Assembly: GCA_041598955.1 (NCBI GenBank) | Contig: JBFHXN010000001.1 | Coordinates: 1 to 39,693, forward strand | DNA from: Desulfuromonadales bacterium | GTDB taxonomy: Bacteria > Desulfobacterota > Desulfuromonadia > Desulfuromonadales > JBFHXN01 | Length of the DNA: 39,693 nt | Direction: 5' to 3' | Shown: one piece after another, positions 3,397-31,976 of the stretch | Numbering within the stretch: the stretch's first letter is position 1 | How the letters are laid out: each line of letters starts with the position of its first letter | Translations under genes and position numbers: made by a program | The notes under the pieces: generated by a model | Told to the model about the DNA's origin: nothing | Databases searched by the model: none | What the model saw: only the letters and a program-made list of their open reading frames with translations

Positions 3397-4444
3397 CGAT
3401 TTTCAGGCCGTAGACCGCGCGATCCCCCAGAGGGCCCTTGGCAGCGGCCCGGAAGGGAGTGTGCCCGGAGTCTGCGCCGGGCTGGGCAAATACCCTCCCT
3501 TCGCGCACGGCCAACCCAGCCACGGCGAGGTCGAAGGCCGGCCCCACGGGCAGTGCGCCGAAGAGGGGCGCATAGGCACCCACCTCGGCGCCGGGCGGAA
3601 GAAGCCCCCCGTAACCCGCGGCACACCGGGCGTGGCCGTCGGCGCCGAGCAACAGCAGGGCGTTTTCGGGCACCTTTGGCGCTCCGGCCGAAAGCCGACC
3701 GAAGCCCAGGTCGGTGAGATGTCCATATCGGGCCGCGGTACCCCCGGCGCGGGTGAGGAGGAAAAAGGCGGCACCTTCCCCGACCATCGCGCTCTGGCGC
3801 TCGAAGTGCAGGGGGCGCATCTCAGCCACCGGCGGGCCGAAGAAGCGATCCCAGCAATACCCCAGCACCGGGCAGCACTCGTCGACGCCGCCGAAGAGGA
3901 CCGCGTCGACCCGTTGCTCAACAAGCCACTGGCGGGCGCTGAGCAGGGCCGAGAAAACCGACATCTCGAACTGGCTCACTGTCAGGCTCGGCCCGGTGGC
4001 GCCAAGCAGGATCGAGACGTGGGCCGCCGCGGCGTTGTGAACCGAGTTTGAAAAATGGGTCGGCGATGCGCAGCCGTCCCCATCGTCAAGAACCGAATCG
4101 AGAAAGGAGAAGGTGGTGCGGGTGGCGCCGTAGCCGGTGGCGATCACAACCCCCAGTCGCCCCCGGTCCGCCCCCTCCATCCCCGCATCCTGAAGCGCCA
4201 GATGGGCTCCAAGTAGGGCCAGACGGGAGATGTGGTCGATACGGCGAAAGGCCCGCTTGGGGATGAACTCTTCCAGCCGGGAACTATCGGCGAGCAGGGC
4301 GGGCCGGGAGCCCCCCCCTTCTCCGGGCGCCGTGGCAAGAGCGCCTATCCGACTGGCTCCGGAGTCCAGGGCCTGCCGCAGATCGTCCACCCCGCAGCCG
4401 AAACCGCCCACCACTCCGATTCCCTCGATTGCCAGCGCCGTCAT
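3347..4444 (-). CDS. beta-ketoacyl synthase-like protein lacking the active-site Cys (chain-length-factor-like partner)
   Basis: Thiolase-fold KS similarity throughout. At the position of the A-C-S-S nucleophile motif it reads GPSLTVSQFEMSVFSAL, with no Cys. ATGA overlap with the upstream KS at 4441-4444. Confidence 0.8.
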   Translation of the reverse strand: MTALAIEGIGVVGGFGCGVDDLRQALDSGASRIGALATAPGEGGGSRPALLADSSRLEEFIPKRAFRRIDHISRLALLGAHLALQDAGMEGADRGRLGVVIATGYGATRTTFSFLDSVLDDGDGCASPTHFSNSVHNAAAAHVSILLGATGPSLTVSQFEMSVFSALLSARQWLVEQRVDAVLFGGVDECCPVLGYCWDRFFGPPVAEMRPLHFERQSAMVGEGAAFFLLTRAGGTAARYGHLTDLGFGRLSAGAPKVPENALLLLGADGHARCAAGYGGLLPPGAEVGAYAPLFGALPVGPAFDLAVAGLAVREGRVFAQPGADSGHTPFRAAAKGPLGDRAVYGLKIDGEGSFGSFTVRRGEF

Positions 4445-5643
4445 GATTTGTCTCCCGACCCGAAAACAATCACAGCGTTGTTGCCGCCGAAGGCCAGCGA
4501 TTCAGAGAGTGCGACCCGGCCTCGAACGGGGATCGTTTTTACCGTGGGCCGCCCGGGCAGATCGGGATCGGGGGTCGAAAACCCGACACTGGCCGGGATC
4601 TCCTTGCGCTCCAGACAGGCGACGGTGAGAGCCGCCTCGATCGCCCCGGCCGCGCCGAGGGTGTGGCCGGTATATCCCTTGGTGGAGAAAAAGGGGGTCT
4701 GCGGCAGCACCTCGCTGAGAACCCGGCTCTCCACCCGGTCATTGTCCGGGGTGCCGGTGCCGTGGGCGTTGACGAAGTCGATCTCCCCCGGTTGGGCGCC
4801 GCTGGAGGCGAGAGCCTCGGCGATGGCCCGCTTCAGCCCTGACCCGTCGGGACTCGGAGCGGTCAGGTGGTAAGCATCGCAGGCCGAGCCGTAACCGAGG
4901 ACGTAGGATCGGGCTCGCACTCCCCTCCTGCGATGCACCTCCTCGGATTCAAGGACCAGCATCGCAGCCCCCTCGCCGAGGTTGAGCCCCCGGCGGCTGA
5001 GATCGAAGGGACGGACCGCTTCGGCGTCGGTAATCATCAAAGAGATGAAGCCGTTGTAGGTCACCCGGCAGAGCTCATCGGCCCCCCCGGCGATGGCCAG
5101 GTCGCAGAGGCCTGCGCGGATCCACGAGGCGGCCAACCCGACGGCATCGGTCCCCGAGGAGCAGGCGTTGACCACCGTCTGGCAGGGGCCCCCTAAGCCG
5201 TAGCGGCGGGCGATCGCCCCCGCCGGGTTGCTCTGCAGAAAGCGCTCGATGGGAGTCATCGCTGGGGCTTCTCCCCGGCGGTATTGGCTGTAGAACTCCT
5301 CGTTGTTCATGGCGCTGCCCACCGTTGTCCCGACGCAGACGCCGACGCGCAGTCCGGCCAGATCAGCCGGGGCCCAGCCCGCGTCGGCGAAGGCCTCCTG
5401 CGCCGCGGCCAAAGCCAGGCTGGAGGTTCGCAGCAGACCGCTCCCCTCCCCGGGGACCTCGGCCAGCGCCTCATCCGGCACCTCGAAAACGGGATAGCGA
5501 CCCGGATGGCCGGTGGAAACGCGGCCGGGCGGCAGGGGGTTGCGCTTGCCGGCAAAGAGCGCCCCGGTGCATTCGGCCAGGTTGTTGCCGGCGGCGCACA
5601 GGCAGCCGAGGCCGGTGACGGCAACGGGAGCCTGGGAGATCAT
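4441..5643 (-). CDS. beta-ketoacyl-ACP synthase (FabF/KAS II-like)
   Basis: Active-site VVNACSSGTDAV, His motifs NAHGTGTPDND and GHTLGAAG. ATGA overlap with the ACP stop at 5640-5643. Confidence 0.9.
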   Translation of the reverse strand: MISQAPVAVTGLGCLCAAGNNLAECTGALFAGKRNPLPPGRVSTGHPGRYPVFEVPDEALAEVPGEGSGLLRTSSLALAAAQEAFADAGWAPADLAGLRVGVCVGTTVGSAMNNEEFYSQYRRGEAPAMTPIERFLQSNPAGAIARRYGLGGPCQTVVNACSSGTDAVGLAASWIRAGLCDLAIAGGADELCRVTYNGFISLMITDAEAVRPFDLSRRGLNLGEGAAMLVLESEEVHRRRGVRARSYVLGYGSACDAYHLTAPSPDGSGLKRAIAEALASSGAQPGEIDFVNAHGTGTPDNDRVESRVLSEVLPQTPFFSTKGYTGHTLGAAGAIEAALTVACLERKEIPASVGFSTPDPDLPGRPTVKTIPVRGRVALSESLAFGGNNAVIVFGSGDKS

Positions 5644-5894
5644 GCCGAAGTCCGCTGCTCGATGAAGGCCGCCAGGGTATCAACGGACTGCAGCGCGGGA
5701 CGACCCTGCTCCATGTCCTTGATCTCGACCCCGAAGTGCTTCTGCACCAGGACCACCAGTTCGACGGCATCGAGAGAATCGAGGCCCAGCCCTTCGCCGA
5801 ACAGAGGAGCGTCATCGACGATATCCTCCGGGCTCATATCCTCCAGGTTGAGCTCTTCCACCAGCACCTTCTTGAGTTTTTCCTTGATCGTCAT
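5640..5894 (-). CDS. acyl carrier protein
   Basis: MTIKEKLKKVLVEEL...GLDSLDAVELV carries the phosphopantetheine Ser motif. The ATG at 5894 lies just after the upstream stop at 5899. The longer track ORF (to 6044) is an unlikely extension that overlaps the acyltransferase. Confidence 0.9.
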   Translation of the reverse strand: MTIKEKLKKVLVEELNLEDMSPEDIVDDAPLFGEGLGLDSLDAVELVVLVQKHFGVEIKDMEQGRPALQSVDTLAAFIEQRTSA

Positions 5895-5898: not shown

Positions 5899-6867
5899 TC
5901 AGGCTCCTTTGGTGATCGCGGCAGGACTCTCCCCCTCAGTCGTCGGGGGAGTCTGCCACATGTCGTAGAAATTGAAAAACTGAAAAGGATGTTCCCGGGT
6001 GAATTCCTCCAGCACGTCAGCGAACTGCTGGGCATAGGGGGCAAAGGCCTCGGCGCGGCGACCGAGATCGGGCGCCACCCGGATCACCCGGAAGAGCTTG
6101 AGCTCATAATGTCTGGGCCCGCTCTTGCAGGAGAAGAGGACTGCCACCGGAGCGCCGGTGGCCGAAGCGAGCTTGAAGGCGCTGAAAGGGAAAAGAGCCT
6201 TGGCGCCGAGAAAGTCGACCGCCACCCCGTTCTGGTCGTTGCCGAGCATGCGGTCGCCCATGACCGAAAGGACCTCTCCGTTTTTGAGAACCCCGAGCAT
6301 CTCCATGGTGCCGCCGAGAAAACCTCTGGGGTCGATGATCCGGTAGGGGCAGGCCAGACCGGCATGCTCGAAGTAGTGGCGGTCGATGTCCCCCTCTTCG
6401 CGCTGCATCAGAAGGCTGACGGGAACCTGCAGGAACCCGAGGGCGGACATGGCCACCTGCCAGCATCCGACATGGGCCGTCATCAGCACCAGGCCCTTGC
6501 CTTCGCCCAGAAGGGCGAGGAGTTCCTCCCGGCCGCCGAGTCCCATCCCCATCTGCTCGGGCCCCAGAATCCCGACCACCGCCCGGTCGACAAGCACCTT
6601 TCCGATCTCGAGGCTCAGCCGGTAGCTCTTCACCAGGCGCCTGAGTGTTCCGTCCCCGGGGTAGCGCCGGCGAAGATAATATTCGCTCTTGCGCCGCTGG
6701 TCGGGACGCAGCAGAACGTAGTACAGAACGACGAAATAGAGCAGCAGATAGGCCGCGCGCCTTCCTCCGAGCCGAATCAGCAGGTAGAAGATCCGGTGCT
6801 GCCAGTCGGCGCCGATGCTGCGGCTGCTCCACCCGGCCCTGCCCTCCTGTCCCTCAGCCGGCGACAT
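5899..6867 (-). CDS. LpxL/HtrB-like lysophospholipid/lipid A acyltransferase family protein
   Basis: N-terminal TM segment, then LVLMTAHVGCWQ (the H-x4-type motif region of late lipid A acyltransferases). Length about 320 aa. C-terminal PFQFFNFYDMW is typical of the family. Confidence 0.8.
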   Translation of the reverse strand: MSPAEGQEGRAGWSSRSIGADWQHRIFYLLIRLGGRRAAYLLLYFVVLYYVLLRPDQRRKSEYYLRRRYPGDGTLRRLVKSYRLSLEIGKVLVDRAVVGILGPEQMGMGLGGREELLALLGEGKGLVLMTAHVGCWQVAMSALGFLQVPVSLLMQREEGDIDRHYFEHAGLACPYRIIDPRGFLGGTMEMLGVLKNGEVLSVMGDRMLGNDQNGVAVDFLGAKALFPFSAFKLASATGAPVAVLFSCKSGPRHYELKLFRVIRVAPDLGRRAEAFAPYAQQFADVLEEFTREHPFQFFNFYDMWQTPPTTEGESPAAITKGA

Positions 6868-8059
6868 GGTTTTTCCTCTTCAGCGCCAGCGCCATGCCGT
6901 AGATCGTCACCCCGGCCACCGCAGCCAGGAAGGGACCGAGGACAAGGGAACCGAGGAGCCACTCGTACAGCCGCTCCAGTCCCTGGTAGCCGAGGGTCTC
7001 CAGGGAGATCTCGGTGAGGAATTCCCCCTTGCGCAGGAAATACCCCGTCTCGATGCACAGGGCGGGAACCAGAGGGGGCATGCAGAGCTGGCTGGCACCC
7101 ACAGCGGCCACCTTGTTCAGCCGGAGAAAGCCTGCGGCGAAGAGGATCGCGACGGTGTGGCAGGCAATCAAGGGCGCGGCGCCCAGAAAGACTCCAAGGG
7201 CGCCTGCGGCGGCCAGCTGAGCCGGGGAGGCATTTTCGGTCATCAGAAGACGCAGGGAGCGCCAGGGGTGCAGCACGCTCACTTTCGGTTCGCCTCCGGG
7301 CGACGGGACGATCTTCCGGTGGGGCCATGGCAGGACCGAGCGCATGGTCAGCCTGGTATTGAGCTGGGTCAGGCGAAGGTTGTCCATGAACCCCCGGAAG
7401 TGGGAGACCCTCTCCCCGGCTGGCGGGTAGTAGACGTAGATATCGACATCCACCAGGGGCACCCCGGCCCAGGCCGCCTTGACCAGAACCTCGACCTCGA
7501 AGGAGTAGTGGCTCTCGCCCAGATTCAGCCCCTCCAGAACGACGAGGGGATAGGCGCGGAAACCGCTCTGGGTGTCCCCAAGAATCTGGCCGGTCTGAAG
7601 TCGCAGCCAGAAATTCGAGAATTTCCGTCCGAACCGGCTGGAGCCCGGGACATTGTCGGTGTCGAAATCGCGTTTGCCGACCACTACCGAAAGGGGGCGC
7701 TCGGCGAGAGCCTCGAAAAAGCGTGGGAGGTCGGAAGGATCATGCTGTCCGTCGGCGTCGAGGGTGATGATGTGGGTCATCCCCAACCGACGGGCCTCCC
7801 TGGCGGCGGTCATGATGGCCGCCCCCTTGCCGCGGTTCTTCTCATGACGCAGCAGCCCCACCTCGAGGTCGCGGAGGGTTTCGCCGCCCCCGTCGGTGCT
7901 GCCATCATCGACCACCAGGACCTGCCCGTGCATTTCCAGGGCCTGCTTCACCACCTCCCGGACAGTCGCGGCGTGGTTGAAGAGTGGAATGACGACAAGG
8001 GTTTTTTGCCGGTCGTAGGTCACTTCATTTCTCTCCCAGGCGCTGGTTGCTGCGAGCAA
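6854..8059 (-). CDS. family 2 glycosyltransferase fused to a C-terminal DUF2062-like membrane domain
   Basis: VVIPLFNHAATV...VVDDGSTDGG and LDADGQHDP are GT-A/GT2 motifs. The C-terminal third is hydrophobic. An alternative GTG start at 8023 follows GGGAGAG and sits 1 nt after the upstream stop, so it may be the true start. Confidence 0.85.
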   Translation of the reverse strand: MLAATSAWERNEVTYDRQKTLVVIPLFNHAATVREVVKQALEMHGQVLVVDDGSTDGGGETLRDLEVGLLRHEKNRGKGAAIMTAAREARRLGMTHIITLDADGQHDPSDLPRFFEALAERPLSVVVGKRDFDTDNVPGSSRFGRKFSNFWLRLQTGQILGDTQSGFRAYPLVVLEGLNLGESHYSFEVEVLVKAAWAGVPLVDVDIYVYYPPAGERVSHFRGFMDNLRLTQLNTRLTMRSVLPWPHRKIVPSPGGEPKVSVLHPWRSLRLLMTENASPAQLAAAGALGVFLGAAPLIACHTVAILFAAGFLRLNKVAAVGASQLCMPPLVPALCIETGYFLRKGEFLTEISLETLGYQGLERLYEWLLGSLVLGPFLAAVAGVTIYGMALALKRKNHVAG

Positions 8060-9494
8060 AGCGGAGGAAGTCAGCCAGATTCAGGATAAACCGCTTCCAG
8101 CTGTCGGGGGAGCGCCAGAGCATGGCCCCATAGCCGAGCAGCACCCGAGGCCGCATGAAATGTTTCTTGTAGAACTGCTGGAAGAGCTCTTCCAGCCGCT
8201 CTCTGGTCATGCCGTGGGGGATGAACTGGAACTGCATGCAGTCCATCTTCTCCCAATCCTCCTCGAAACTCCCAAGCTCGTGGATCTTCTCGTAGAGAGG
8301 CGAGCCGGGGAAGGGGGTGAACTTGGCCAGGTTGAATTCGTCGAGGGGGAGGGAGAAGACATAGTCCATGCTCCGCCCGATGCTCTCCTCGCTCTCCCCT
8401 GGAAGCCCCATCATCAGCAGCCCCTTGGTGCGGATGCCGGCCGCCTTGATCAGCCGGATCTTGTCGGTGAGCATCTGCAAGTCTGCATTCTGACGGTGCT
8501 GTGCGAGCAGCTCCGGGTCTCCGGTTTCTATCCCCAGGCTCGCCATCCAGCAGCCCGCCGCCTTCATCTTCCGCAACAGCCCCAGGTCGATATGCTCGGC
8601 CCGCACGGCGCAGTTGAAGGTCATGCCCAGCGGCCGGTCAACCATCAACCCGCAGAAGGCCTCAACCCGCTCACGGTTGAAGGTGAACTGGTCGTCGTAG
8701 AAGTTGACATGACGGATACCGAAGCGCTCCCTGAGATAGCGCAGGTGCTCGTAGAGGTAGTCAGCCGAGTTGTACCGGAAACTGCGCCTGAAAACCGACC
8801 GGTCGCAATAACTGCAGGCGTAGGGGCACCCTCGACTGGAGATGCAACTGGTGTTGGGGGCCTTGGGGTAGTTGAAAATCGGCAGCCGGTAGGCCTGTGG
8901 GTAACCGGCGAGCTTCTCGTAGGCCGGAAAAGGGAGGGCATCGAGATCGATCCCCTTTTCGCGGTAGCCGGTGAAGTTGACCTCCCCGCCCCTTTCGCGG
9001 TAGACGAGCCCCTTGATTCGTTCTGGATTCTGCCCGTCGGCGGCCAGAAGCTCACCCAGGGTCTCCTCCCCCTCCCCCACAACGGCGAAATCGACATCGG
9101 AATAATCCCGCAGGACCCTCTCCTTAAGGGCGGAGACGTGAGCGCCGCCGAAAACGGTGCGGATGGCGGGAAGCTCTTCCCTGGCAAGGGCTGCGATCCG
9201 CACTCCGTCGAGAAAGCTCGAGGTGGTGCAGGAGAGGCCGAGAAATGCCGGACGGTGCTCGCGCAACAGGTCGCGAATGACACGCTGGTCGTCGGGATGG
9301 GCATAGCAGTCGACGATCAGCGTCGAGTGCCCCTGCTGCTCCAGATAGGCGGCGATGCTCGCCAGGCCGAGGGGCGGCATGATATTCGCCATCCGGGAGA
9401 TGTCTCGCCCGGCGGCCTCGGCCCGGTACCCCAGGGGGTGGATGAGAAGGATGCTGCTCCCGTTGCGCGCCGTCATGTTCAGCTTTCCCCTCAT
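8025..9494 (-). CDS. B12-binding domain radical SAM protein (HpnJ-like by general appearance)
   Basis: N-terminal cobalamin-binding-type Rossmann region (ILLIHPLGY...PPLGLASIAAYLEQQGH), then radical SAM CPYACSYC (CX3CX2C). I chose the ATG at 9494 because it makes an ATGA overlap with the upstream stop. The track ORF extends to 9536. Confidence 0.9.
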   Translation of the reverse strand: MRGKLNMTARNGSSILLIHPLGYRAEAAGRDISRMANIMPPLGLASIAAYLEQQGHSTLIVDCYAHPDDQRVIRDLLREHRPAFLGLSCTTSSFLDGVRIAALAREELPAIRTVFGGAHVSALKERVLRDYSDVDFAVVGEGEETLGELLAADGQNPERIKGLVYRERGGEVNFTGYREKGIDLDALPFPAYEKLAGYPQAYRLPIFNYPKAPNTSCISSRGCPYACSYCDRSVFRRSFRYNSADYLYEHLRYLRERFGIRHVNFYDDQFTFNRERVEAFCGLMVDRPLGMTFNCAVRAEHIDLGLLRKMKAAGCWMASLGIETGDPELLAQHRQNADLQMLTDKIRLIKAAGIRTKGLLMMGLPGESEESIGRSMDYVFSLPLDEFNLAKFTPFPGSPLYEKIHELGSFEEDWEKMDCMQFQFIPHGMTRERLEELFQQFYKKHFMRPRVLLGYGAMLWRSPDSWKRFILNLADFLRFARSNQRLGEK

Positions 9495-10855
9495 GCCTTC
9501 TTTCTGGAGGAACGGTAGGAGATGAGCTTGTCCCAAAGAATGCCGCGGAAGCCGAAACGATGCATCACCGCCAGCTTCTCCTGCCCGTCGGAAGGGGGGA
9601 AGATGCGATCGCGGCGTCCCTGGAAGCTCGCCAGGATGCGGGCGTTCATCGCCTCGGGGTCAAGGGCCGGGGAAAAATAATAGCGCGGCATGAGCAGGGG
9701 AGCGCCGGCTTCGAGCACCCCCTCCCGCACGGCCTGGGCATGGAGGTCGGTGCCGGGCAGGATGCGGATTCCGGAGAAGCCGAAAACAACCGAATGCTCA
9801 AGGCGGGCGATATTCGCGAGCCCCTCCTCCAACGTCTCCATCGTTTCGCCGGGTCCTCCGAACATGATGAAATGGGCGCAGGGAAGCTCCTCGGCAACGC
9901 AGGCCTCGTTGACGGCCAGAACATCGGCGAAGGTGAGCCCCTTGTTCAGGCCCTTGAGGGTGGCGTCGCTGGCGGCATCGGTGCCGAGCTCCACGGCATA
10001 GAGCCCCGAGCGCTTGAGCAGGGAGAGCTCGGCTCGCCCCAGCCCCTGGGGGCGGAAAAACCCGCACCAGCGGATCCCCGCCTCCCGCCGGAGAAGCTCT
10101 TCGGCCACCTTCAGATAGTGCCCGCAGGCGTCGTTGAAGACCGAGTCGGTAAAGAAGAAGCTCGTCACGCCGTGATCGCGCTGGATGCGCTCGATGTCGT
10201 CCACGACCGCTTCGGGGTCCCGGACCCGGAAGAGATTCCCCTCCAGGGCCGGATAGGTGCAGTAGCTGCAGTTGTGGGGGCAGCCCCGCTTGGTCTGAAG
10301 GTTGACCATCCCGCTCTGCCCCACATAGAAATCAATCAGCTCCTGTTCGTAGAGCGGCGCCGCCATCCCCTCTCCGCTCAACGGCGCCGCGTTGCCCTGG
10401 GTGATGCGGGGGGGCTTCTCCCCGCGGGCAAGGGTGGCGACCAGATCGCAGACGGCCAGCTCCCCCTCGCCGGCGACCCCGTAGTCGGCACCGATGTAGT
10501 CGAGGATTTCCTCCGGCATGATGGAGAAGGCGGGGCCGCCGACGACCACCGGCGCGGCCGTCACCTCGCGGATGAGTGCCACTTGCGCCCGGGCCAGGGC
10601 CAGATACCAGGCCCGCTCCATGCTGAAGGAGTCGACGTTGTCGATATTGCGCAGGGAGAGGCAGATCGTCTCCGGACCGAATTCCCGCAGCGCCTCGCGC
10701 AGCTTGTCTTCGGAGCGCCCCGAGGCGAGAAAATCGAACTGGCGCAGTTCATGCCCCTTCGCGGCCAGGGCCGAGGCGATCACCGCCATCCCCAGGGGAT
10801 AGACGGGGTAAGGCTCGGTGGTGACGTTGGTGGAGAGCAGGAAAATCCGGCTCAT
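9491..10855 (-). CDS. B12-binding domain radical SAM protein (lipid-biosynthesis-associated type)
   Basis: N-terminal IFLLSTNVTTEPYPVYPLGMAVIASALAAKGH (B12-binding-like), then CPHNCSYC (CX3CX2C). ATGA overlap with the upstream stop at 10852-10855. Confidence 0.9.
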   Translation of the reverse strand: MSRIFLLSTNVTTEPYPVYPLGMAVIASALAAKGHELRQFDFLASGRSEDKLREALREFGPETICLSLRNIDNVDSFSMERAWYLALARAQVALIREVTAAPVVVGGPAFSIMPEEILDYIGADYGVAGEGELAVCDLVATLARGEKPPRITQGNAAPLSGEGMAAPLYEQELIDFYVGQSGMVNLQTKRGCPHNCSYCTYPALEGNLFRVRDPEAVVDDIERIQRDHGVTSFFFTDSVFNDACGHYLKVAEELLRREAGIRWCGFFRPQGLGRAELSLLKRSGLYAVELGTDAASDATLKGLNKGLTFADVLAVNEACVAEELPCAHFIMFGGPGETMETLEEGLANIARLEHSVVFGFSGIRILPGTDLHAQAVREGVLEAGAPLLMPRYYFSPALDPEAMNARILASFQGRRDRIFPPSDGQEKLAVMHRFGFRGILWDKLISYRSSRKKA

Positions 10856-12117
10856 GCTTCAACCTTTCGTCCCTCGAAGGTTCGCCGCGTTTTCGGGTCG
10901 TAGCGTCGGTAGGTTCCGTCGTCCATCTCCCGGCGAATGACCTGCTTGAAGAGTTCACCCATCTTGAGCTGGTGCCCCCCCCCGGCGTAGAAGGTGTCCC
11001 AGGCGTAGTAGTAGAGCTCCTGGAGTTTTTCAGGGGTCATCTGCTTGGGCTGGAAGACGACCTTGTCGGCGGTGTAGTCGAGCCAGTTGTTGCTCAGGAT
11101 GCGCCCCTCCCGTTCAAACTGGGCACGGATCGGGGAATGGGGGAAAGGGGTAAGGATGGTGAACTCGGCCACGTCGAGCTCCACCTCGAGCAGAAAATCG
11201 ACCAGACGCTTGATGTCATCCTCGTTTTGATCGTCGGTGCCGAGGATGATCGTCCCTTCGATACCGATGCCGTGTTCCTTGAGGCGCCGGATACGGTTGC
11301 GGATCACATCCGAGGTGTCGAAGACCGCCTGGTAGACGTACCAGGCCCCGGCGTCGGCCGCGAGCTTGAGGATCTCGGGATCATCGAGGATGGGGTGGGA
11401 GACCCACTTCTTCTTGAGGGGAATCATCGCCGTGAAGAGTTCCTTGAGCCATCCACGGTCCTGGGCGAGGGAGTTGTCGACGATAAAGAGGCGATTGTTG
11501 CGAATCGCCTCCATTTCGGCGATGACCTTTTCGACGGGGCGGGGCCGGAATTTTTTTCCGCCGAGATAACCGGTGCAGCAGGGAAAGCAGTCGAAGCGGC
11601 ATCCCCTGGACGCGTGAACCAGGTCGAGCATCTGCACGCCCCGGTAGTTGTAGAGGTCGCGATTGAGGATCTCGCGCCGGGCGGTGCCGATCAGCTCCAT
11701 CGAGGGAGGGTTGTTCATGTAATCGTAGACCGGCTTCAACCGACCCTTGCGAAAGTCCTCAAAGACGGCGCCGAGGCGCCCCTCGACCTCTCCGAGAAAG
11801 ATGGCGTCGGCGTGCTGCTTGACCTCCTCGGCGTGAAGCATGGTCGCAATGCCGCCGAAGATGACCGTACGCCCTCGGGCACGAAATTCCCGGGCCACCT
11901 CGAAGGCGCGCGGCAACTGGCAGGTGAGCATCGTGGAGATGGCGACCAGGTCGGCCGGGTCGTCGAAGTCGATCTCCTCGAGGTTCTCGTCGGTGAAGGC
12001 GACCTCGACCTCCGAAGGAACGGCGGCGGCGAATACGACGGGGCCGTGTGGGGGGAGGTGGAACTCGGTCTGGCGGTCGAGCTTGGGCCAGCTGGGGTAG
12101 ACAAGTTTCAGTTTCAT
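10852..12117 (-). CDS. B12-binding domain radical SAM protein
   Basis: N-terminal B12-binding-like region (LVAISTMLTCQLPRAFEVAREFRARGRTVIFGG), then CRFDCFPC (CX3CX2C). Confidence 0.9.
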   Translation of the reverse strand: MKLKLVYPSWPKLDRQTEFHLPPHGPVVFAAAVPSEVEVAFTDENLEEIDFDDPADLVAISTMLTCQLPRAFEVAREFRARGRTVIFGGIATMLHAEEVKQHADAIFLGEVEGRLGAVFEDFRKGRLKPVYDYMNNPPSMELIGTARREILNRDLYNYRGVQMLDLVHASRGCRFDCFPCCTGYLGGKKFRPRPVEKVIAEMEAIRNNRLFIVDNSLAQDRGWLKELFTAMIPLKKKWVSHPILDDPEILKLAADAGAWYVYQAVFDTSDVIRNRIRRLKEHGIGIEGTIILGTDDQNEDDIKRLVDFLLEVELDVAEFTILTPFPHSPIRAQFEREGRILSNNWLDYTADKVVFQPKQMTPEKLQELYYYAWDTFYAGGGHQLKMGELFKQVIRREMDDGTYRRYDPKTRRTFEGRKVEA

Positions 12118-12145
12118 GGGGCAACTCTCCCGAAAAAGAGGATGG

Positions 12146-12892
12146 TTAAGCGGTCATGGCGGCGCGTTTGCCACCCGGTAGAGCCGGAACAAGGCAGGCC
12201 CGTGCCACCTCGGCCCAGTCCCTGACCGGGACATTGTCAACGTCGAGGTTTCCCCCCGCATCAAGCCCGACCCGGGGGGTGATCTCCTTCCCTCCGGGCG
12301 ATGCGCCCCTCGACAGAACGAGAAAGAGTGCTCCGGGAAGGGCTGGCGAGGCCCAGGAGATCCCGGCGGGGAAGGGCAGGTCGCACACGCCGGCCAGGAT
12401 GACGTCACACTCGCCCCAGGAGAGGCTTTCGAGAGCCATGACCAGGCTGGCAAGGCGGCTGGCCTTGGTTTCGTTGATGACGAACCCCGTCCCCGTCAAG
12501 CCGAAGCGGATGGCGGCCTCCCCGAGGAAGCAGTTGGAGAGGGTATATGCGAAGAGATTGGGACTCGCCAGCCCTCCACCTTCGGGGAGGACGGTCTCGA
12601 AATAGGCGAGATCCGTCGTCAGGCAGCCGTAAGCGGTTGCGGCGATGAGGCCGACCTTGCGTTTTTCCCGCCACTGGTCGAGGCCCGCATCCCTCAAGGC
12701 GAGGGCGATCGCAGAGAGGCCGAGACGGGAAAACTCATCGAGCCGCCCGAACCGGGGGAAGGGCTCCTCGAAAACATCCTTGCGGGCAATGGGCGGCAGG
12801 GGGCCGGCCGGCATGGCAAAGTCGCCGCCAGTGCCACCCCGCCCGAGACCGGCGGCAGTGATCCAGCCGAGCCCTTGAATCACGGCTCTCAT
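12146..12892 (-). CDS. short beta-ketoacyl synthase N-terminal-like protein without catalytic Cys (CLF-like partner, about 248 aa)
   Basis: MRAVIQGLGWITAAGLG... has KS N-terminal-domain similarity. At the nucleophile position it reads FVINETKASRLAS, with no Cys. The ATG at 12892 forms an ATGA overlap with the upstream KS stop. The track ORF extension to 13249 is Arg/Gly-rich and overlaps that KS. Confidence 0.65.
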   Translation of the reverse strand: MRAVIQGLGWITAAGLGRGGTGGDFAMPAGPLPPIARKDVFEEPFPRFGRLDEFSRLGLSAIALALRDAGLDQWREKRKVGLIAATAYGCLTTDLAYFETVLPEGGGLASPNLFAYTLSNCFLGEAAIRFGLTGTGFVINETKASRLASLVMALESLSWGECDVILAGVCDLPFPAGISWASPALPGALFLVLSRGASPGGKEITPRVGLDAGGNLDVDNVPVRDWAEVARACLVPALPGGKRAAMTA

Positions 12893-14022
12893 GCCTCGGC
12901 TCCTTTCCCGAGAAGAATTGCGGCATTGACGCCACCGAAGCCCGAGTTGGTGGACAGCAGGACATCTCCCGAAAAGGAAACGGCGGCGGGGCTTACGATG
13001 GCCTCCGCCCCCGTCTCGGGGGTGCGAAAACCGACCGTCGGCGGAACGGTTCCGGCGGCCAGGGATTTGACACCCAGCGCCACCTCGATGCCTCCGGCTG
13101 CGCCCAGGGTATGGCCGATGGCCCCCTTGACCGAATGGGTCGGCAGACGATGCTCGCCAAAGACAGCGCGAAAGGCCGTCAGCTCCATCGCATCGTTGTA
13201 AACGGTACCGGTGCCGTGGGCGCTGATGGCAGAAACCCCATCGGGGCACAGAGCCGCCTTCGCCAGGGCCTCTCGGATCGCAAGAATCAGGCCGCTGCCG
13301 TCTCGGGCCGGTGCGGTGATGTGGTTGGCGTCGTTGGCCACCCCCCAGCCGAGGACCTGGCCCAGGGGGGAGCGGCCTTCCCGCCGGGCCCGCTGGGGAC
13401 TCATCAGCAGCAGGGCGGCCGCTCCCTCGCCGAGGGTGAGTCCTGCCCGCTCCCGATCGAAGGGGCGACTCGGCTCGGGAGAGAGGGCCCGCAGGGCTGA
13501 GAAGCCGGAGAAAACGAATTCGCTCACCAGATCGAGGCAGCAGACCAGAACAGTCTCGGCCCGCCCCGAGGCGATCAGGGCGGCCCCCCGGGCCACGGCG
13601 ATGGTGGAGGAGGCGCAGGCGGCATTGATGTTCACGCCTCCGTCGGTGAGCGCAAAACGGTGGGCAATGGCCTCCAGTATCGCCTCCGGAAGCATTTCGC
13701 GGGGCCGGACCTCCCCCCCCCTGCTCAACCGCTCCAGGACGTCGATCCCCCCCTTGGTGGTGGCGACCAGAAGCCGGCTCTCCGCAGGGACCGGCGCGAA
13801 GCCGTCAAAAAGTCGCTCGAGCATGGGATGAAGAAGCGTTTCCCCTTCCCCCCTGACCAGCCCCGGAACGCAGGAGGCGAGGTGCGCCTGGTAGGCACCG
13901 GTGGCAAAACGGGTCACCGGGGCGATGGCCGAATCCCCCGCCAGGAGGCGCCGCCAGCTCTCCTCCAGGCTGTCCCCGAGACCGGTGACGGCGGCGGCAT
14001 CGGTAATCCAGACCGGTATCAT
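12889..14022 (-). CDS. beta-ketoacyl-ACP synthase
   Basis: NINAACASSTIAV (Cys), SAHGTGTVYND and GHTLGAAG (His, His). The ATG at 14022 forms an ATGA overlap with the thioesterase stop. Confidence 0.9.
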   Translation of the reverse strand: MIPVWITDAAAVTGLGDSLEESWRRLLAGDSAIAPVTRFATGAYQAHLASCVPGLVRGEGETLLHPMLERLFDGFAPVPAESRLLVATTKGGIDVLERLSRGGEVRPREMLPEAILEAIAHRFALTDGGVNINAACASSTIAVARGAALIASGRAETVLVCCLDLVSEFVFSGFSALRALSPEPSRPFDRERAGLTLGEGAAALLLMSPQRARREGRSPLGQVLGWGVANDANHITAPARDGSGLILAIREALAKAALCPDGVSAISAHGTGTVYNDAMELTAFRAVFGEHRLPTHSVKGAIGHTLGAAGGIEVALGVKSLAAGTVPPTVGFRTPETGAEAIVSPAAVSFSGDVLLSTNSGFGGVNAAILLGKGAEA

Positions 14023-14480
14023 TCCACCTCCCCCAGCCGCCATCGGGCACAGAACTCCTGGTAGAAGGGGGGGGCCAGAAGCAGCAGGCTGTGGTCCTGA
14101 TCCATCATCATCTGGACCGTGTAGCCCGTGGTTGTCACCTGCCCCTCGTCGTTGCGCAGGATGAATTCGAAGTTGAGTCGGGCGGCCTCGGACCAGTGGA
14201 GGATCCCCTCAATGGAGAAGGCTTCACCGAAACGGAGGGGACGATGATAATCGAGGTGCATCTTCTTGATCGGCGCCAGGATGCCCTGGCGATAGAAGTC
14301 CATGTACCCGACGCCGTAGCGCTCGCCAAGCGCGACCCGTCCATCCTCGAAATAGCTCGGGTAGCGGCCGTGCCAGACGATACCGAGGGGATCGACTTCC
14401 TCAAAGCGCACCACCCGCGACACCTGCACCCGCAGAGGGAGAGGATCCCCGGGCTGGGGCCGAAAATAAGGCTTGTTCAT
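14019..14480 (-). CDS. 4HBT/YbgC-type hotdog acyl-CoA/acyl-ACP thioesterase
   Basis: MNKPYF...VRFEEVDPLGIVWHGRYPSYFEDGR is the 4-hydroxybenzoyl-CoA thioesterase family signature. The ATG at 14480 forms an ATGA overlap with the upstream stop. Confidence 0.8.
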   Translation of the reverse strand: MNKPYFRPQPGDPLPLRVQVSRVVRFEEVDPLGIVWHGRYPSYFEDGRVALGERYGVGYMDFYRQGILAPIKKMHLDYHRPLRFGEAFSIEGILHWSEAARLNFEFILRNDEGQVTTTGYTVQMMMDQDHSLLLLAPPFYQEFCARWRLGEVE

Positions 14481-14863
14481 TGTGGATCTCCGGCGCCGGC
14501 CAGGTGCAGCACGAAAGTGGCGGCCAGAGCTCCCTGCAGCATCAGACGCCCCTCCACCACCGGCTGCTCCCCTCCCTCGCGCTCCCGGCAACGCACCTCG
14601 AGCTCCTGCAGCGGGAGGAGTTGAAGAAGAAATTTGGCATGGTCGACCCCGCGAAGGGAAAAGGACCGCCCGTTCCCCCTTTCAAAGAGGGTCTGAGCCA
14701 TGCGCACCTGAACGACCGCCGGCACGATGGGATAGCCTGGAAAGTGTCCGGCGAAACCGGGGAAATCCTCCGCGAAACGGTACCTGCCGACCAGCTCCCC
14801 GTCCGCCTCTCGCCGCGGCTCTTCAAGCGCCGCTGCCTCAATGGCCGCCTTAAGTCGCATCAT
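14477..14863 (-). CDS. FabA/FabZ-like 3-hydroxyacyl-ACP dehydratase (hotdog)
   Basis: FAGHFPGYPIVPAVVQVRMAQ matches the FabZ H-F-P-x-x-P-(I/V)-x-P-G-V active-site motif. Confidence 0.8.
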   Translation of the reverse strand: MMRLKAAIEAAALEEPRREADGELVGRYRFAEDFPGFAGHFPGYPIVPAVVQVRMAQTLFERGNGRSFSLRGVDHAKFLLQLLPLQELEVRCREREGGEQPVVEGRLMLQGALAATFVLHLAGAGDPQ

Positions 14864-15533
14864 CGCTCCGTTTAACGCTTTCGAGCCAGAGGATCAGACG
14901 GTAGCCTGCGATCCGGTCCTCCAAGACAATCCCAGAGGGATACGCTACTCCGTCCTCGACACGATATTCAAAAAAACGCACTCGCCACTCCTCCCCTTCC
15001 CCCGCCGCCCGCGTCTCCAGCCATTGCGGGCCAATGCCGCCAAAGACAAAGGTGAGGGTTCCCCCGGCCTCCCGGCGCCGCAGGCGGTACTCCAGGGCGT
15101 CAACCTCCAGCGCATCCTCTCCGGCGGGGCGGGGGGTCAAAAAGATGCGGCGCACCGAGGTCGCCACCGCCTCGGCAAAACCAGGGAAGCGTGCCAGCTC
15201 GGGAAGAACGAAGTGCTCCTCGACCCCCTGGCTGTTCACCGTCAGGTCGAAGAACTTGACCCCCAGATCGTTCAACGCCACCAGCCGGGCTGTGAGGGTT
15301 GATGAATCGAGCACCATGAACCCGACCAACGGCAGTTTGCGCCCACGGAACTCGAAGAGGACCGTTTGGCGTATCCGCAGGGTTGCAGGCTGCCCGGTCC
15401 AGGTGCGGGCCGCAAGCTCGGCCGCGGAGACTCCCGGTCGCGTAGGGACGGGTTCCGTGACGGCAAAGGGAAGAGGAGTGCACCCGCAGAGCAGGGCCGC
15501 AGCAAGCAGCAGAGCGCCAAGGACCCGGTTCAC
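14850..15533 (-). CDS. lipoprotein of unknown function (DUF3261-like position in APE-type clusters)
   Basis: GTG start at 15533, forming a GTGA overlap with the exporter stop. VNRVLGALLLAAALLCGC carries a lipobox L-C-G-C. The track ORF extension to 16019 lies inside the MMPL gene in another frame and was rejected. Confidence 0.65.
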   Translation of the reverse strand: MNRVLGALLLAAALLCGCTPLPFAVTEPVPTRPGVSAAELAARTWTGQPATLRIRQTVLFEFRGRKLPLVGFMVLDSSTLTARLVALNDLGVKFFDLTVNSQGVEEHFVLPELARFPGFAEAVATSVRRIFLTPRPAGEDALEVDALEYRLRRREAGGTLTFVFGGIGPQWLETRAAGEGEEWRVRFFEYRVEDGVAYPSGIVLEDRIAGYRLILWLESVKRSDDAT

Positions 15534-17905
15534 TTCACCCCTCCCCGGTGAAGCGCCGGGATCACCAGCAACGCCGCCGGGATGGCGGCGCCGATCCCAA
15601 GCAGCACCGTAACCCCGATGGAATGCAGGGCGGGATGACGGGCCAGCACCAGGGCCCCGAAACCGGCCAGGGTCGTCAGGCCCGAAACCAGCACCGCCCG
15701 ATCGACGGATCGATTCATCCCCTGCGCCAGCTTGCAGACCATGAAGATTCCGTAGTCGACCCCCAGGCCGATGACGAGAATGGTGGCGACGACATTGAAG
15801 AGGGTAAAATCCAGACCCAGCGCCCCCATGGCCCCGAACATCACGGCCAGGCCCGTGCCGACGGGAACCAGGGCCAGAAGAACCTTGCCCGGGGACCGGA
15901 AGAGCCAAACGAGAAGCAGGGTCACGGCCAGGGAGGCCAGGGCGATGAATTGAAAGAAATCCCGACCGATGGCCCTCCCGACCTCTTGGCGGAAGCGGCT
16001 CTGGCTGACGAGTCTCCATGCCGGGTCGGCCTTTTCACCCTCCTCGACGATGGCAGCCACCTCGGCGGTGTCGGGGACCATGCTGAGAATCCGCACCATC
16101 CCCTCCTCCTCGAGAATCATGGCTTGCAGCAGCTCGCCCAAGCCGGCGGCGGTGAGGGCCTCGGCGGTCACCGGCGGCGGACTTTGCCCAAGCCCCTCGA
16201 GAAAGGGGGTGAAAGCGGCGGCGGAGAAGCCGAGGGTCTCGGCCTTTTGACTCAACTGACGCTTCGCCCGGGCTCCAGCCTCTCCCTGCCAGTAACCGTG
16301 CCATCGGGTACGATTGGCGGATTGGGTCGCCTCGGAGGGGAACAGGGGGGCCAGGCTGACAATTTGACCGGCCGGCAGGGAGGCCGAAAGACTCTCAAAA
16401 AGGCGGTCGTTGGCCGCCAGGGCAGACTGCAGACTCTCCCCTTCGGAAAAAATGAGGGCCTTGCCGCGCAAATCCCCCCAGGTCTCGCCAAGCTGTGCCT
16501 CGGCGGCAGCAAGCTCATCGGGGACCAGGCTCAGGGTGCGCAGGTCGCCGTTGAAATGAAGGCTGCTTCCCTGCCAGAGAGACAGCACCAGCAGCAGCCC
16601 CCAGACCAGGAGAATGGGGCGGCGACCTCGGTTGGCGGACGAAGATGCATCCTCCGGAGCCCGATCAGGCCCCTGGGTCGCCGGCACCAGATGCGGCAAC
16701 ACCACGAGGGAGAGAAGCAGCGAGACCGTCAGCCCGACGATGGCAAAGACCGCCAGCTGTCGCTGCCCGGGAAGATCGGAAAAGAGCAGGACGGCAAAGG
16801 CGGCCACCGTCGTCAGGCCTCCGAAGACCACCGGACGGGCCACTTCGCCCACGATCTTATCGGGTTCGGCCCCGCCCTGGCGCAGGGCGAAATAGGTATG
16901 CAGGGCGTAGTCGACCGAAATCCCGAGCAGGACGGCCCCGAAACCAATGGTGACCGCCGATACCGAGGGGTAGACCAGCGAGACCGCCACGGCCGCCAGG
17001 CAAAGGACCGAAAAGGGGATGAGAAAAACGAAAATCGCCCGCCAGTGCCTCAGATAAAGAAGAAAGAGGGCGAGAATCGCGAGGGAGGAGGCACTGAGGA
17101 TGACCAGGAGGTCCTTCTTGATCGCCTCGGCGTTGGCCAGGGTATAGCGATGCCCACTGACCAGGGTGGCCTTTATGGAAGGGGGCAGCTTGCCCGCAGC
17201 CTCCTCGAACTCGGCGAGAAGCTTTCCTGCTCCGGCCGAATCGGTAATCGCGACGGGCGTCTCTGCAATCAGCAGCGAATGTCGTCCGTCGGCGCTGACA
17301 AAATGTCCCCCCTCCAGGCGCACCTTGGGGATGAGATTGACATGCCCCATCTTTTCCAGCGAAAGCTTGTGAAGGGCGAGGGGGTCTTTGCGGATGAGCC
17401 CCTTGAGGGCCCAGCCTTCAGGGGACAGAAGCTGCCGATAGCTCTCGGAAAGACGCTCTCCGACCCCCCCCTCATCGAGATCGGCGGCCAGCCTCGACAG
17501 GTCCCCATCGGTGAAGAGGCTTGGCAGGGCCTCGCTCAGCCAGGGCAAAAGACGCTCCCCCCCGAGGCCTGCGGGGCCGGTCACCACACGATTGAACAAG
17601 GGAGAGGAGAGAGAGTCGGCCAGCCGGTCCGCCGACTCTCCAAGGAGGACCCTGCCCGCCTCGTCCCTGGCTTCCAGATCGATGACAACCTTGCGCAGCA
17701 TGGGGGCACGCTGCAGCAGGCGAAAATCGACGGATACCGAGGAGTCGTCATCGGGGAGCATCGACTCGATGTTCTCCTCCATCCGCACCCCCTGGAAACC
17801 CAGAACGCTCGCCAGCAACAGGACCACCGTGCCGGCAAGGAGCGAGCGCCTTCGGCGGGAGAAGAAGCGGTAAGTTGTCGAGAAAACCCCGTTGACGTCC
17901 ATCAC
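15530..17905 (-). CDS. MMPL/RND-superfamily membrane exporter (two 6-TM bundles with periplasmic loops)
   Basis: 791 aa. Two hydrophobic blocks at roughly residues 270-420 and 640-790 are separated by soluble domains. This is typical of the predicted-exporter gene of APE clusters. Confidence 0.85.
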   Translation of the reverse strand: MMDVNGVFSTTYRFFSRRRRSLLAGTVVLLLASVLGFQGVRMEENIESMLPDDDSSVSVDFRLLQRAPMLRKVVIDLEARDEAGRVLLGESADRLADSLSSPLFNRVVTGPAGLGGERLLPWLSEALPSLFTDGDLSRLAADLDEGGVGERLSESYRQLLSPEGWALKGLIRKDPLALHKLSLEKMGHVNLIPKVRLEGGHFVSADGRHSLLIAETPVAITDSAGAGKLLAEFEEAAGKLPPSIKATLVSGHRYTLANAEAIKKDLLVILSASSLAILALFLLYLRHWRAIFVFLIPFSVLCLAAVAVSLVYPSVSAVTIGFGAVLLGISVDYALHTYFALRQGGAEPDKIVGEVARPVVFGGLTTVAAFAVLLFSDLPGQRQLAVFAIVGLTVSLLLSLVVLPHLVPATQGPDRAPEDASSSANRGRRPILLVWGLLLVLSLWQGSSLHFNGDLRTLSLVPDELAAAEAQLGETWGDLRGKALIFSEGESLQSALAANDRLFESLSASLPAGQIVSLAPLFPSEATQSANRTRWHGYWQGEAGARAKRQLSQKAETLGFSAAAFTPFLEGLGQSPPPVTAEALTAAGLGELLQAMILEEEGMVRILSMVPDTAEVAAIVEEGEKADPAWRLVSQSRFRQEVGRAIGRDFFQFIALASLAVTLLLVWLFRSPGKVLLALVPVGTGLAVMFGAMGALGLDFTLFNVVATILVIGLGVDYGIFMVCKLAQGMNRSVDRAVLVSGLTTLAGFGALVLARHPALHSIGVTVLLGIGAAIPAALLVIPALHRGGVK

Positions 17906-17908
17906 TCT

Positions 17909-18529: not shown

Positions 18530-18984
18530 TCCCTGCTCTGCTCCTTCTGGGGGACCGGGGGCACCCAAAGCTTGAGGGTTCCGGTGGCGAGCACCTCATC
18601 ACCCCTTCTGACCTCCCCCTCGGCGATGGCAAAACCCTCGATGCTCGCCACGGTCCGGATCGAAACCTCGAGACGGTCGCCCAACCGGGCCCTTCCCTGC
18701 AGATGCGAGCGGCGGATCCCCACCAGAAAGCCCTGGCCCACCTCCCCGCCCCGCTGAAGATCTGAGTACCCCTTCACAGCGGCATAGGCCTGGGCGAGGA
18801 TTTCGAGCATCGCAACCTCGTCGAGATAGCCACCGGCATCCAGAAAGAGATGGCCGGCCGCCACCTCCGCCTCGACCGTCCCCCCCCCATCGGCAAAGCT
18901 CAGCAGACGATCGACCAGACGCATGGGGAGGCGGTGGGGAATCAGCGACTCAGCCGGGATCGGCAAGGTCGTCTCAACTGCCAT
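18526..18984 (-). CDS. hotdog-fold dehydratase (APE-cluster ApeI-type 3-hydroxyacyl-ACP dehydratase-like)
   Basis: LIPHRLPMRLVDRLL at the N-terminus and a size of about 150 aa match the second dehydratase type found in aryl-polyene clusters. Confidence 0.7.
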   Translation of the reverse strand: MAVETTLPIPAESLIPHRLPMRLVDRLLSFADGGGTVEAEVAAGHLFLDAGGYLDEVAMLEILAQAYAAVKGYSDLQRGGEVGQGFLVGIRRSHLQGRARLGDRLEVSIRTVASIEGFAIAEGEVRRGDEVLATGTLKLWVPPVPQKEQSRE

Positions 18985-29725: not shown

Positions 29726-29726
29726 G

Positions 29727-30698: not shown

Positions 30699-30708
30699 CC
30701 TCCTGAAA

Positions 30709-30747: not shown

Positions 30748-30770
30748 GATGACAGTCCGATTGAAGCTGA

Positions 30771-31928: not shown

Positions 31929-31976
31929 GGACTACCTCCGCATATCGGGTGAGGGGCGTGCTCGACGGGCCGCTGC

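Follow-up and report, generated by a model that had tools for sequence, protein, structure and literature searches.

Type II fatty acid synthase (FASII)-like gene clusters of Kuenenia stuttgartiensis contain several radical S-adenosylmethionine (SAM) genes together with phytoene-dehydrogenase-like genes, a phenylacetyl-CoA-ligase-like gene and a glycosyltransferase gene, and "very similar" clusters were noted in Desulfotalea psychrophila, Geobacter and Pelobacter carbinolicus (Rattray et al., 2009; PMC2649909). In this study, a cluster of this type was analyzed in a DNA stretch of 39,693 nucleotides from a Desulfuromonadales bacterium (GenBank assembly GCA_041598955.1, contig JBFHXN010000001.1, positions 1 to 39,693 of the forward strand), which is referred to as the window. 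It contains three adjacent genes, designated here as rSAM1, rSAM2 and rSAM3. The three are real and distinct genes with a class-B-type radical SAM domain architecture, and they form a conserved module in an aryl-polyene (Ape)-like cluster.

Such clusters have become known as "ladderane-type" clusters. In the reviewer comment by Galperin that was printed with Rattray et al. (2009), Kuste3343 was paired with DP1855 and Kuste3342 with DP1853 (PMC2649909). The "ladderane" class of antiSMASH 3 was built on the same paper (PMC4489286), and "ladderane" calls are now routine in Desulfobacterota, Myxococcota and other non-anammox phyla, where the function has been remarked as unknown (PMC9902471). Expression of the Kuenenia genes in Escherichia coli yielded no new lipids, and the proteins of kuste3342 and kuste3343 were not detected (PMC4790861). 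The radical SAM steps are still listed as hypothetical in structural work and in a 2026 review (PMC10139942; PMC13459092). The cluster that is unique to anammox bacteria, which carries the B12-type radical SAM gene kuste2803, is a different one (PMC2649909; PMC10139942). Other genes counted as specific to anammox bacteria are amxACP and amxFabZ.

Similar to the window, the ladderane-type clusters (kuste3335-3352 of Kuenenia, the DP1853/DP1855 region of Desulfotalea and those of Geobacter and Pelobacter) have radical SAM genes beside genes for ketosynthase/chain-length factor (KS/CLF) pairs, acyl carrier proteins (ACPs), a phytoene-desaturase-like flavoprotein, a ligase and a glycosyltransferase. 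In the Desulfotalea-type loci, rSAM1 and rSAM2 occur as in the window, together with the ligase, the desaturase-like gene and the glycosyltransferase. On the basis of the text of Rattray et al., kuste3338, kuste3342 and kuste3343 are putative orthologs of the three genes. The window differs from these clusters by an aromatic ammonia-lyase, DarG/DarH, a PagL-like protein and a complete Ape export set. Because of these additional genes, an aryl-polyene product is indicated, rather than a ladderane.

The Ape clusters of E. coli CFT073, Vibrio and Xenorhabdus and the flexirubin clusters of Bacteroidota have KS/CLF, ACPs, dehydratases, a ketoreductase, a thioesterase and attachment/export genes in common with the window. 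Canonical Ape clusters use an ordinary class-I SAM methyltransferase, ApeB, as had been predicted (PMC8253772). In contrast, the window lacks ApeB, and three class-B radical SAM genes and a CrtI-like desaturase gene are inserted. The locus analyzed here is a further instance of a named module: the family TIGR04072 is curated, and papers and curated databases have contained the arrangement since 2009. The novelty claimed in the original prediction is not established, given that the same cluster type was described in 2009 (PMC2649909) and that TIGR04072 and the antiSMASH "ladderane" class exist (PMC4489286).

The Three Radical SAM Genes

The window has a G+C content of ~64% and contains, between about 28.5 and 0.3 kb, a tightly packed run of minus-strand genes, of which the three radical SAM genes are part. 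On the minus strand, rSAM1 occupies positions 10852-12117 and encodes a divergent class-B-type radical SAM protein of 421 amino acid residues with the motif CRFDCFPC at residue 173. It is followed by rSAM2 (9491-10855; 454 residues), a TIGR04072 member with CPHNCSYC at residue 192, and by rSAM3 (8025-9494), a class-B radical SAM protein with CPYACSYC at residue 223. The latter has 489 residues when counted from the ATG at 9494; its mechanical open reading frame (ORF) extends beyond this codon to a TTG at 9536. Direct reading of the sequence revealed ATGA stop/start overlaps at 10855-10852 between rSAM1 and rSAM2 and at 9494-9491 between rSAM2 and rSAM3. The gap between rSAM1 and the upstream CLF gene is 28 nt. 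Given these overlaps and this short gap, the genes are assigned to one co-transcribed operon. The stop codon of rSAM3 lies inside the ORF of the next gene, which encodes a GT2-DUF2062 glycosyltransferase.

Each of the three proteins contains exactly one CX3CX2C motif. Their pairwise identities are only 22–27%, which rules out a recent triplication and makes them old paralogs of different subfamilies. The adjacency of the genes, their overlaps, their cluster motifs, their divergence and their position between a KS/CLF pair (12146-14022) and a glycosyltransferase (6854-8059) had all been predicted, and all were borne out. Plus-strand ORFs of 452, 447 and 417 residues that mirror the three genes (8160-12225) were rejected as genes; they are shadow frames typical of DNA with high G+C content.

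The Pfam cutoffs used were 29.5 bits for Radical_SAM (PF04055) and 32.1 bits for B12-binding (PF02310). Both domains were found above cutoff in rSAM2 (63.3 and 62.5 bits, respectively) and in rSAM3 (83.8 and 82.4 bits, respectively). rSAM1 just passed for Radical_SAM (30.3 bits) and remained below the cutoff for B12-binding (24.6 bits). The N-terminal domains of all three proteins are of the Rossmann type and share a PxG / GG / GExE pattern. The predicted N-terminal domain of the cobalamin-binding type was clear in rSAM2 and rSAM3, and cobalamin binding by rSAM1 is supported indirectly. Among the solved-structure matches of the three proteins, no tetraether synthase entry (Tes/GDGT-MAS type) was found. 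No Rfam family, and hence no cobalamin riboswitch, reached its gathering score within the window.

rSAM2 is the only one of the three that belongs to a curated family of lipid-biosynthesis radical SAM proteins. It scored 705 bits against NCBIfam TIGR04072 (rSAM_ladder_B12, "lipid biosynthesis B12-binding/radical SAM protein"; cutoff 360), and the alignment covers the full length of the family, with residues 3-446 on model positions 1-443 of 443. The same model gave 95.7 bits with rSAM3 and only 41.6 bits with rSAM1, neither of which is a member. The next families of rSAM2 were BzaD (205 bits, cutoff 450) and the TsrM-type tryptophan 2-C-methyltransferases (151 bits, cutoff 500), and its best match in the PDB was TsrM (6wte, E = 4e-32). 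TsrM and BzaD (a benzimidazole C-methylase), which are class-B methylases of aromatic sp2 carbons, are therefore its closest characterized relatives, at scores far below their cutoffs. In the HMMER alignment, the VRNTD motif around Arg69 of TsrM aligns with LRNID of rSAM2, and S-x-R-N-x-D is invariant in 29 family members. Glu273 of TsrM (TDSEFN) is replaced by Val in rSAM2 (TDSVFN), and this position is not conserved. In the TsrM structure, Arg69 reportedly lies under the corrin, and Glu273 is said to ligate the unique iron and to block SAM. If these roles hold, rSAM2 probably keeps a TsrM-like cobalamin pocket and has a cluster that is free for SAM binding.

For rSAM3, no curated family was found. 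Its highest scores, about one third of the respective cutoffs, were those of HpnJ (178 bits, cutoff 578) and BchE (176 bits, cutoff 481), followed by ApyD (169 bits), and its best match in the PDB was AprD4 (6fd2, E = 6e-23). The hopanoid, bacteriochlorophyll and aminoglycoside genes that belong to the HpnJ, BchE and AprD4 systems, respectively, are not found near the three genes. Outside its CX3CX2C motif, rSAM3 has five further cysteines, C89, C217, C295, C315 and C419, that are invariant in 15 sequences and may form an auxiliary iron-sulfur (Fe-S) site.

rSAM1 also has no curated family. The best NCBIfam match was the archaeal family TIGR04013, with 54 bits far below its cutoff of 251. The AlphaFold2 model of rSAM1 had a pLDDT of 76, with low confidence at the loop of residues 15-22 and around the cluster motif. 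Its best Foldseek matches were MgmA (9ccb), TsrM, MiaB and CysS, and RimO was also listed. MgmA, the glutamine C-methylase of methyl-coenzyme M reductase, was the top match, at 18% identity and a TM-score of ~0.5. The likeness to MgmA and TIGR04013 supports a shared architecture only. Despite the presence of MiaB and RimO among the Foldseek matches, rSAM1 is not regarded as a methylthiotransferase, as it has no second conserved cysteine set; its only invariant cysteines are C66 and the three cluster cysteines.

The number of rSAM1 homologs exceeded 6500 at E ≤ 1e-10, and a similar number was obtained with the Desulfotalea copy as the query; the homolog lists comprise the closest 120–150 proteins. 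In a representative library clustered at 50% identity, the orthologs of rSAM1 formed a narrow group (at least 48% identity) within a superfamily of 708 representatives at E ≤ 1e-30. Relatives with identities of 37–49% passed the B12-binding cutoff.

Two other features of the rSAM1 group were observed. Residues 16-26 of rSAM1 (Q-T-E-F-H-L-P-P-H-G-P) are invariant in 40 homologs with identities of 57–88%. This stretch lies in the loop after the first beta-strand, in a region modeled at low confidence, and its His24 stands where the PPLG motif of rSAM3 has Leu. In addition, the representative library contains a protein of 1210 residues, P0366, in which an rSAM1 relative (residues 811-1169, 36% identity) is joined to an MMPL/RND transporter that has a sterol-sensing-like region. 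The fusion is a possible Rosetta-stone link of the rSAM1 clade to lipid export, or it could be a gene-calling fusion.

Conservation of the Gene Module

A scan for relatives of rSAM2, with one genome per species, identified 29 loci, onto which all proteins of the window were mapped. In about 14 of the 29, the three genes lie side by side with their order preserved. Across many independent genomes, this arrangement recurs at amino acid identities of 58–83%, which is more than chance would produce. Loci with all three were found in Desulfuromonas, Trichloromonas, Geobacter, Candidatus Deferrimicrobium, a Hydrogenedentes metagenome-assembled genome (MAG) and others, and the identities ranged from 72 to 83% for rSAM1, from 48 to 70% for rSAM2 and from 62 to 78% for rSAM3. 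None of the carriers is an anammox bacterium; they belong to the Desulfuromonadales and Desulfobulbales. The complete genome of the cultured Desulfuromonas versatilis has exactly the gene order of the window, and close homologs of rSAM1 are present in several further cultured Desulfuromonadales, among them D. acetexigens, Geoalkalibacter halelectricus and Geopsychrobacter electrodiphilus with identities of at least 81%. An identical copy of the rSAM1 protein is found in an NCBI MAG that stems from the project which also produced the Trichloromonas MAGs. Every informative locus had Ape/flexirubin-type neighbors.

The module varied among the loci. In Desulfobulbales (Desulfotalea and Desulfocapsaceae), rSAM1 and rSAM2 are adjacent, and rSAM3 is found ~5 kb downstream or lies outside the available stretch. 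The Desulfobulbales loci also contain an additional radical SAM-SPASM gene of ~350 residues (positions 7039-8100 of locus L021 and 6647-7696 of L025) two genes upstream of rSAM1. This gene is absent from the window, and the clusters of those bacteria thus have a different mix of radical SAM enzymes, with three to four of them encoded. In another variant, represented by positions 1901-12467 of L027 and also by L028, the genes encode an ACP, two weak radical-SAM-like proteins, two KSs, a thioesterase, a polyketide synthase (PKS)-type dehydratase, an ACP, an aromatic ammonia-lyase (TAL), rSAM2 and GT2-DUF2062. The module is thus reduced to rSAM2 in L027 and L028, where the two radical-SAM-like ORFs of 351 and 360 residues remain below the Pfam cutoff. 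Wherever the downstream flank is of sufficient length, rSAM2 or rSAM3 is adjoined by a GT2-DUF2062 gene in the majority of the 29 loci, as well as in locus L031. In L004, L012 and L029, rSAM3 is followed by an acyltransferase or PagL-like gene and not by GT2-DUF2062.

The Surrounding Gene Cluster

All genes of the cluster are on the minus strand. Directly upstream of rSAM1 is a KS/CLF pair (12146-14022) of the NCBIfam FabF type, which consists of a KS of 377 residues (12889-14022) and a CLF-like protein of 248 residues (12146-12892), as called on an identical MAG contig. Family searches assigned the following genes (14019-15533) to an ApeK-like 4HBT thioesterase, an ApeI-like dehydratase (14477-14863) and an ApeN-like DUF3261-like lipoprotein (14850-15533), and those at 15530-18984 to an ApeM-like MMPL/RND exporter, an ApeL-like LolA-like carrier and an ApeP/FabZ-like dehydratase. 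The ApeI-like match in the window is weak (22.6 bits); the orthologs in D. versatilis are on record with DUF3261, ApeI-like and ApeP-like domains. Further upstream are an aromatic ammonia-lyase of the TAL/HAL family (19018-20604; 509 bits for HAL) and a FlxY-like aryl-CoA/ACP ligase (20653-21969). They are followed, again by family search, by a PlsC-type acyltransferase (from 21982), an ACP (22795-23058), a FabB/F-like KS (23051-24286), a CrtI/CrtD-like FAD desaturase (24277-25767), a second FabB/F-like KS (25764-26984) and an FlxB/FabG-like ketoreductase (27058-27795).

Immediately downstream of rSAM3 is the ApeJ-like GT2-DUF2062 glycosyltransferase (6854-8059), with 83 bits for Glycos_transf_2 and 47 bits for DUF2062. 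The remaining genes encode an ApeD-like LpxL-type acyltransferase (5899-6867), an ACP (5640-5894), another KS/CLF pair (3347-5643), a PagL-like protein with the fold of an outer membrane lipid A 3-O-deacylase (2770-3396), a DarG-family protein (2179-2625), a BtrH-related acyltransferase, DarH (1181-2182), and an ABC ATPase (343-1188). The PagL-like gene is kept in related loci and has no counterpart in the Ape clusters of E. coli.

The window thus contains the core gene set of an Ape cluster, comprising KS/CLF pairs, ACPs, ApeI/ApeP-type dehydratases, a ketoreductase and an enzyme that activates aryl acids. Moreover, its attachment and export set, which includes the LpxL-type acyltransferase, GT2/DUF2062 and the MMPL/RND, LolA-like and DUF3261 proteins, is complete when compared with the Ape genes tabulated for E. 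coli (PMC8253772). Most flexirubin models remained below cutoff, with 477 of 700 bits for FlxA, 455 of 520 for FlxY, 305 of 340 for FlxB, 89 of 125 for LolA2 and 138 of 170 for flexirubin_DarG. The only flexirubin-type models that passed in the window were DarH (482 bits, cutoff 300) and the DarG subfamily (147 bits, cutoff 70), and neither DarA nor the FabH-like DarB was found within the window. For these reasons, the cluster is named flexirubin-like and not flexirubin. Judged from its annotated genes, it is an anaerobe variant of the Ape/flexirubin-like type II PKS-lipid clusters, which has been called "ladderane-type" by genome miners and in the anammox literature.

No ApeB-like class-I methyltransferase was found among the real ORFs, either in family scans of the cluster genes or in two motif-I scans of the window and of the loci with all three genes, although the motif test is crude and weak. 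One motif-I match was located at the edge of L027.

Beyond the cluster, the window contains genes of other operons. A cob(I)yrinic acid a,c-diamide adenosyltransferase of the CobA/BtuR type (33549-34079, minus strand; 172–179 bits) is encoded ~5 kb away in a different operon and adjoins a gene for a small Fe-S protein with partial similarity to QueG/reductive dehalogenase (32791-33531, minus strand). Positions 28901-39644 contain an acyl-CoA metabolism block with two CoA-transferase-like subunits, two acyl-CoA dehydrogenases, the alpha and beta subunits of an electron transfer flavoprotein, a membrane Fe-S oxidoreductase similar to TfrB/LdhH/DsrK and an enoyl-CoA hydratase. This block appears unrelated to the three radical SAM genes.

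Proposed Function of the Radical SAM Proteins

In the proposed pathway, the ammonia-lyase and the FlxY-like ligase would supply an aryl starter, from which the KS/CLF pairs, the ACPs, the ketoreductase and the ApeI/ApeP-like dehydratases would build an aryl-primed polyene acyl chain. The chain would then be attached to a lipid or glycosyl anchor by GT2-DUF2062, the LpxL/PlsC-type acyltransferases and DarG/DarH, and the product would be moved to the outer membrane by the MMPL, LolA-like and DUF3261-like proteins. The three radical SAM proteins would tailor the ACP-bound or lipid-bound product without oxygen, mainly by cobalamin-dependent C-methylation. rSAM2 would methylate the phenolic ring in place of the absent ApeB, and rSAM1 and rSAM3 would add further methyl groups or perform a rearrangement.

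C-methylation is the most common activity of the characterized class-B enzymes, and methionine-derived ring methyl groups are carried by flexirubins. Aryl polyenes likewise normally carry methionine-derived ring methyls, which come from ApeB-type enzymes (PMC8253772). Given these precedents, the relatives of rSAM2 that methylate electron-rich aromatic carbons and the lack of an ApeB-type enzyme in the window, C-methylation is the favored activity, and we assign a probability of about one half to an explanation of the three genes that is centered on methylation. The substrates, the use of cobalamin and the type of reaction are only inferred, and the predicted roles of rSAM1 and rSAM3 are much less constrained than that of rSAM2. 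The "three successive radical steps" on an ACP-bound chain that the original prediction had put forward are not established.

Several observations weigh against a methylation-centered function. The top families of rSAM3 are not methylases: HpnJ is ring-contracting, BchE is a cyclase and AprD4 is a dehydratase. The nearly constant position of rSAM2 or rSAM3 beside GT2-DUF2062 is consistent with chemistry on the head group. rSAM1 does not reach the Pfam cutoff for B12-binding, and a B12-type domain can be cobalamin-free, as in AprD4, so that the domain alone is no proof. As rSAM2 has no equivalent of Glu273, the non-radical mechanism of TsrM is not simply transferable to it. In L012, neither a TAL nor a FlxY-like ligase is found in the available stretch. 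The Kuenenia cluster contains class-I SAM methyltransferases beside its radical SAM genes (PMC4790861), and the radical SAM enzymes are thus not necessarily substitutes for ApeB. Finally, no activity has been demonstrated for any member of the three families (PMC10139942; PMC13459092).

A tentative alternative, which we consider less probable, is that the three proteins and the CrtI/CrtD-like desaturase remodel the skeleton of the fatty-acid/polyketide chain by oxygen-independent radical chemistry, either with carotenoid-like methyl branching or with rings or cross-links, and that the same occurs with kuste3335-3352 of Kuenenia.

The conserved position of GT2-DUF2062 leads to another explanation, in which the target of rSAM2 and/or rSAM3 is not the polyene but the sugar or anchor that this enzyme installs, and the reaction is a ring contraction, a dehydration or a C-methylation of the sugar, as with HpnI/HpnJ, AprD4 or GenK. 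HpnJ acts beside a GT2 enzyme on a lipid-linked sugar, and rSAM3 has its top family score with HpnJ and its best solved relative in AprD4. Moreover, rSAM2 (or rSAM3) followed by GT2-DUF2062 is the most conserved adjacency, which persists in the minimal TAL-rSAM2-GT2 arrangement of L027 and L028, and in the window the stop codon of rSAM3 lies within the GT2 ORF. However, adjacency in a long operon is weak evidence, all of the family scores are far below their cutoffs, and the nearest relatives of rSAM2 act on aromatic rings, not sugars. This explanation is regarded as unlikely.

Somewhat less likely still is radical C-C bond formation, in which at least one of the enzymes, together with the CrtI/CrtD-like desaturase, would cross-link or cyclize the unsaturated acyl chain, as in the "ladderane" hypothesis for anammox bacteria. 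In favor of this, the family of rSAM2 bears the name rSAM_ladder_B12, the cyclase BchE and the ring-contracting HpnJ are among the closest families of rSAM3, and the five extra invariant cysteines of rSAM3 could hold an auxiliary cluster. The radical SAM genes, the phytoene-desaturase-like gene, the phenylacetyl-CoA-ligase-like gene and the glycosyltransferase gene are also syntenic between Kuenenia and Desulfotalea (PMC2649909). Characterized class-B enzymes, however, are mostly methylases. The carriers are not known to make ladderanes, and D. psychrophila showed only acyclic polyunsaturated chains (PMC2649909). The heterologous expression of the Kuenenia genes without new lipids (PMC4790861) and the identity of the anammox-specific B12-type radical SAM gene, which is kuste2803 and not one of these genes (PMC2649909; PMC10139942), also argue against cyclization.

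It is similarly improbable, although compatible with any of the other explanations, that rSAM1 is independent of cobalamin, with a Rossmann domain that binds no corrinoid, as in AprD4, or with another role, which would leave two B12 enzymes in the module. Its B12-binding score of 24.6 bits against a cutoff of 32.1, the presence in its Foldseek list of MiaB and RimO, whose N-terminal domain is no B12 domain, and the low confidence of its model at loop 15-22 and in the region of the cluster motif are consistent with this. On the other side, rSAM1 shows the PxG / GG / GExE pattern of the two clear B12 domains, its relatives at 37–49% identity score above the B12-binding cutoff, it differs from methylthiotransferases in the lack of a second conserved cysteine set, and its top fold matches, MgmA and TsrM, are cobalamin enzymes.

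Finally, the three genes are hardly passengers from a pathway for hopanoid side chains, bacteriochlorophyll, the B12 lower ligand or a ribosomally synthesized and post-translationally modified peptide (RiPP): despite weak similarity to HpnJ, BchE, BzaD and ApyD and a corrinoid adenosyltransferase gene in the window (33549-34079), each of these four models remained below half of its cutoff, family searches found no hopanoid, bacteriochlorophyll or RiPP precursor genes nearby, the genes are translationally coupled to their neighbors, and they stay in the same Ape-like cluster across orders and phyla. Similarly, the models for HpnR (at most 69 bits, cutoff 650), TsrM, PhpK, AprD4 and MgmA, as well as those for HpnJ, BchE and BzaD, were all below cutoff, and membership in these known pathways is rejected.

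Implications for Anaerobic Lipid Biosynthesis

An aryl-polyene lipid is the suggested product of the cluster because of the complete Ape export and attachment set, the aromatic ammonia-lyase, the lack of ApeB and the TsrM/BzaD-like rSAM2. The link between the "ladderane-type" cluster and the Ape/flexirubin type is the main addition of this study and is a reading of annotations, not a proof. The literature searched contained no statement that equates the two cluster types, no report that joins flexirubin to radical SAM enzymes, none on lipid biosynthesis B12-binding proteins and none of relevance on a Geobacter aryl polyene. Chemical data on an aryl polyene from a Desulfuromonadales carrier were likewise not found there.

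The module is present in thousands of anaerobe genomes, in which automated tools label it "ladderane" and its radical SAM enzymes have no assigned reaction. Our results suggest that cobalamin radical SAM enzymes, and not class-I or oxygen-dependent ones, may tailor the aryl-polyene lipids of anaerobes. Given that the cultured D. versatilis has the same gene order and that homologs of rSAM1 occur in other cultured Desulfuromonadales, the question can be approached outside the unculturable anammox bacteria. The function of the three genes would also bear on whether the genes shared with anammox bacteria relate to ladderanes. If the three proteins do remodel the chain skeleton, this would be the first demonstration that radical SAM enzymes modify a membrane lipid of the ketoacyl (non-isoprenoid) type, and most of the biosynthetic gene clusters called "ladderane" outside the anammox bacteria would be recast as clusters for anaerobic aryl-polyene lipids.

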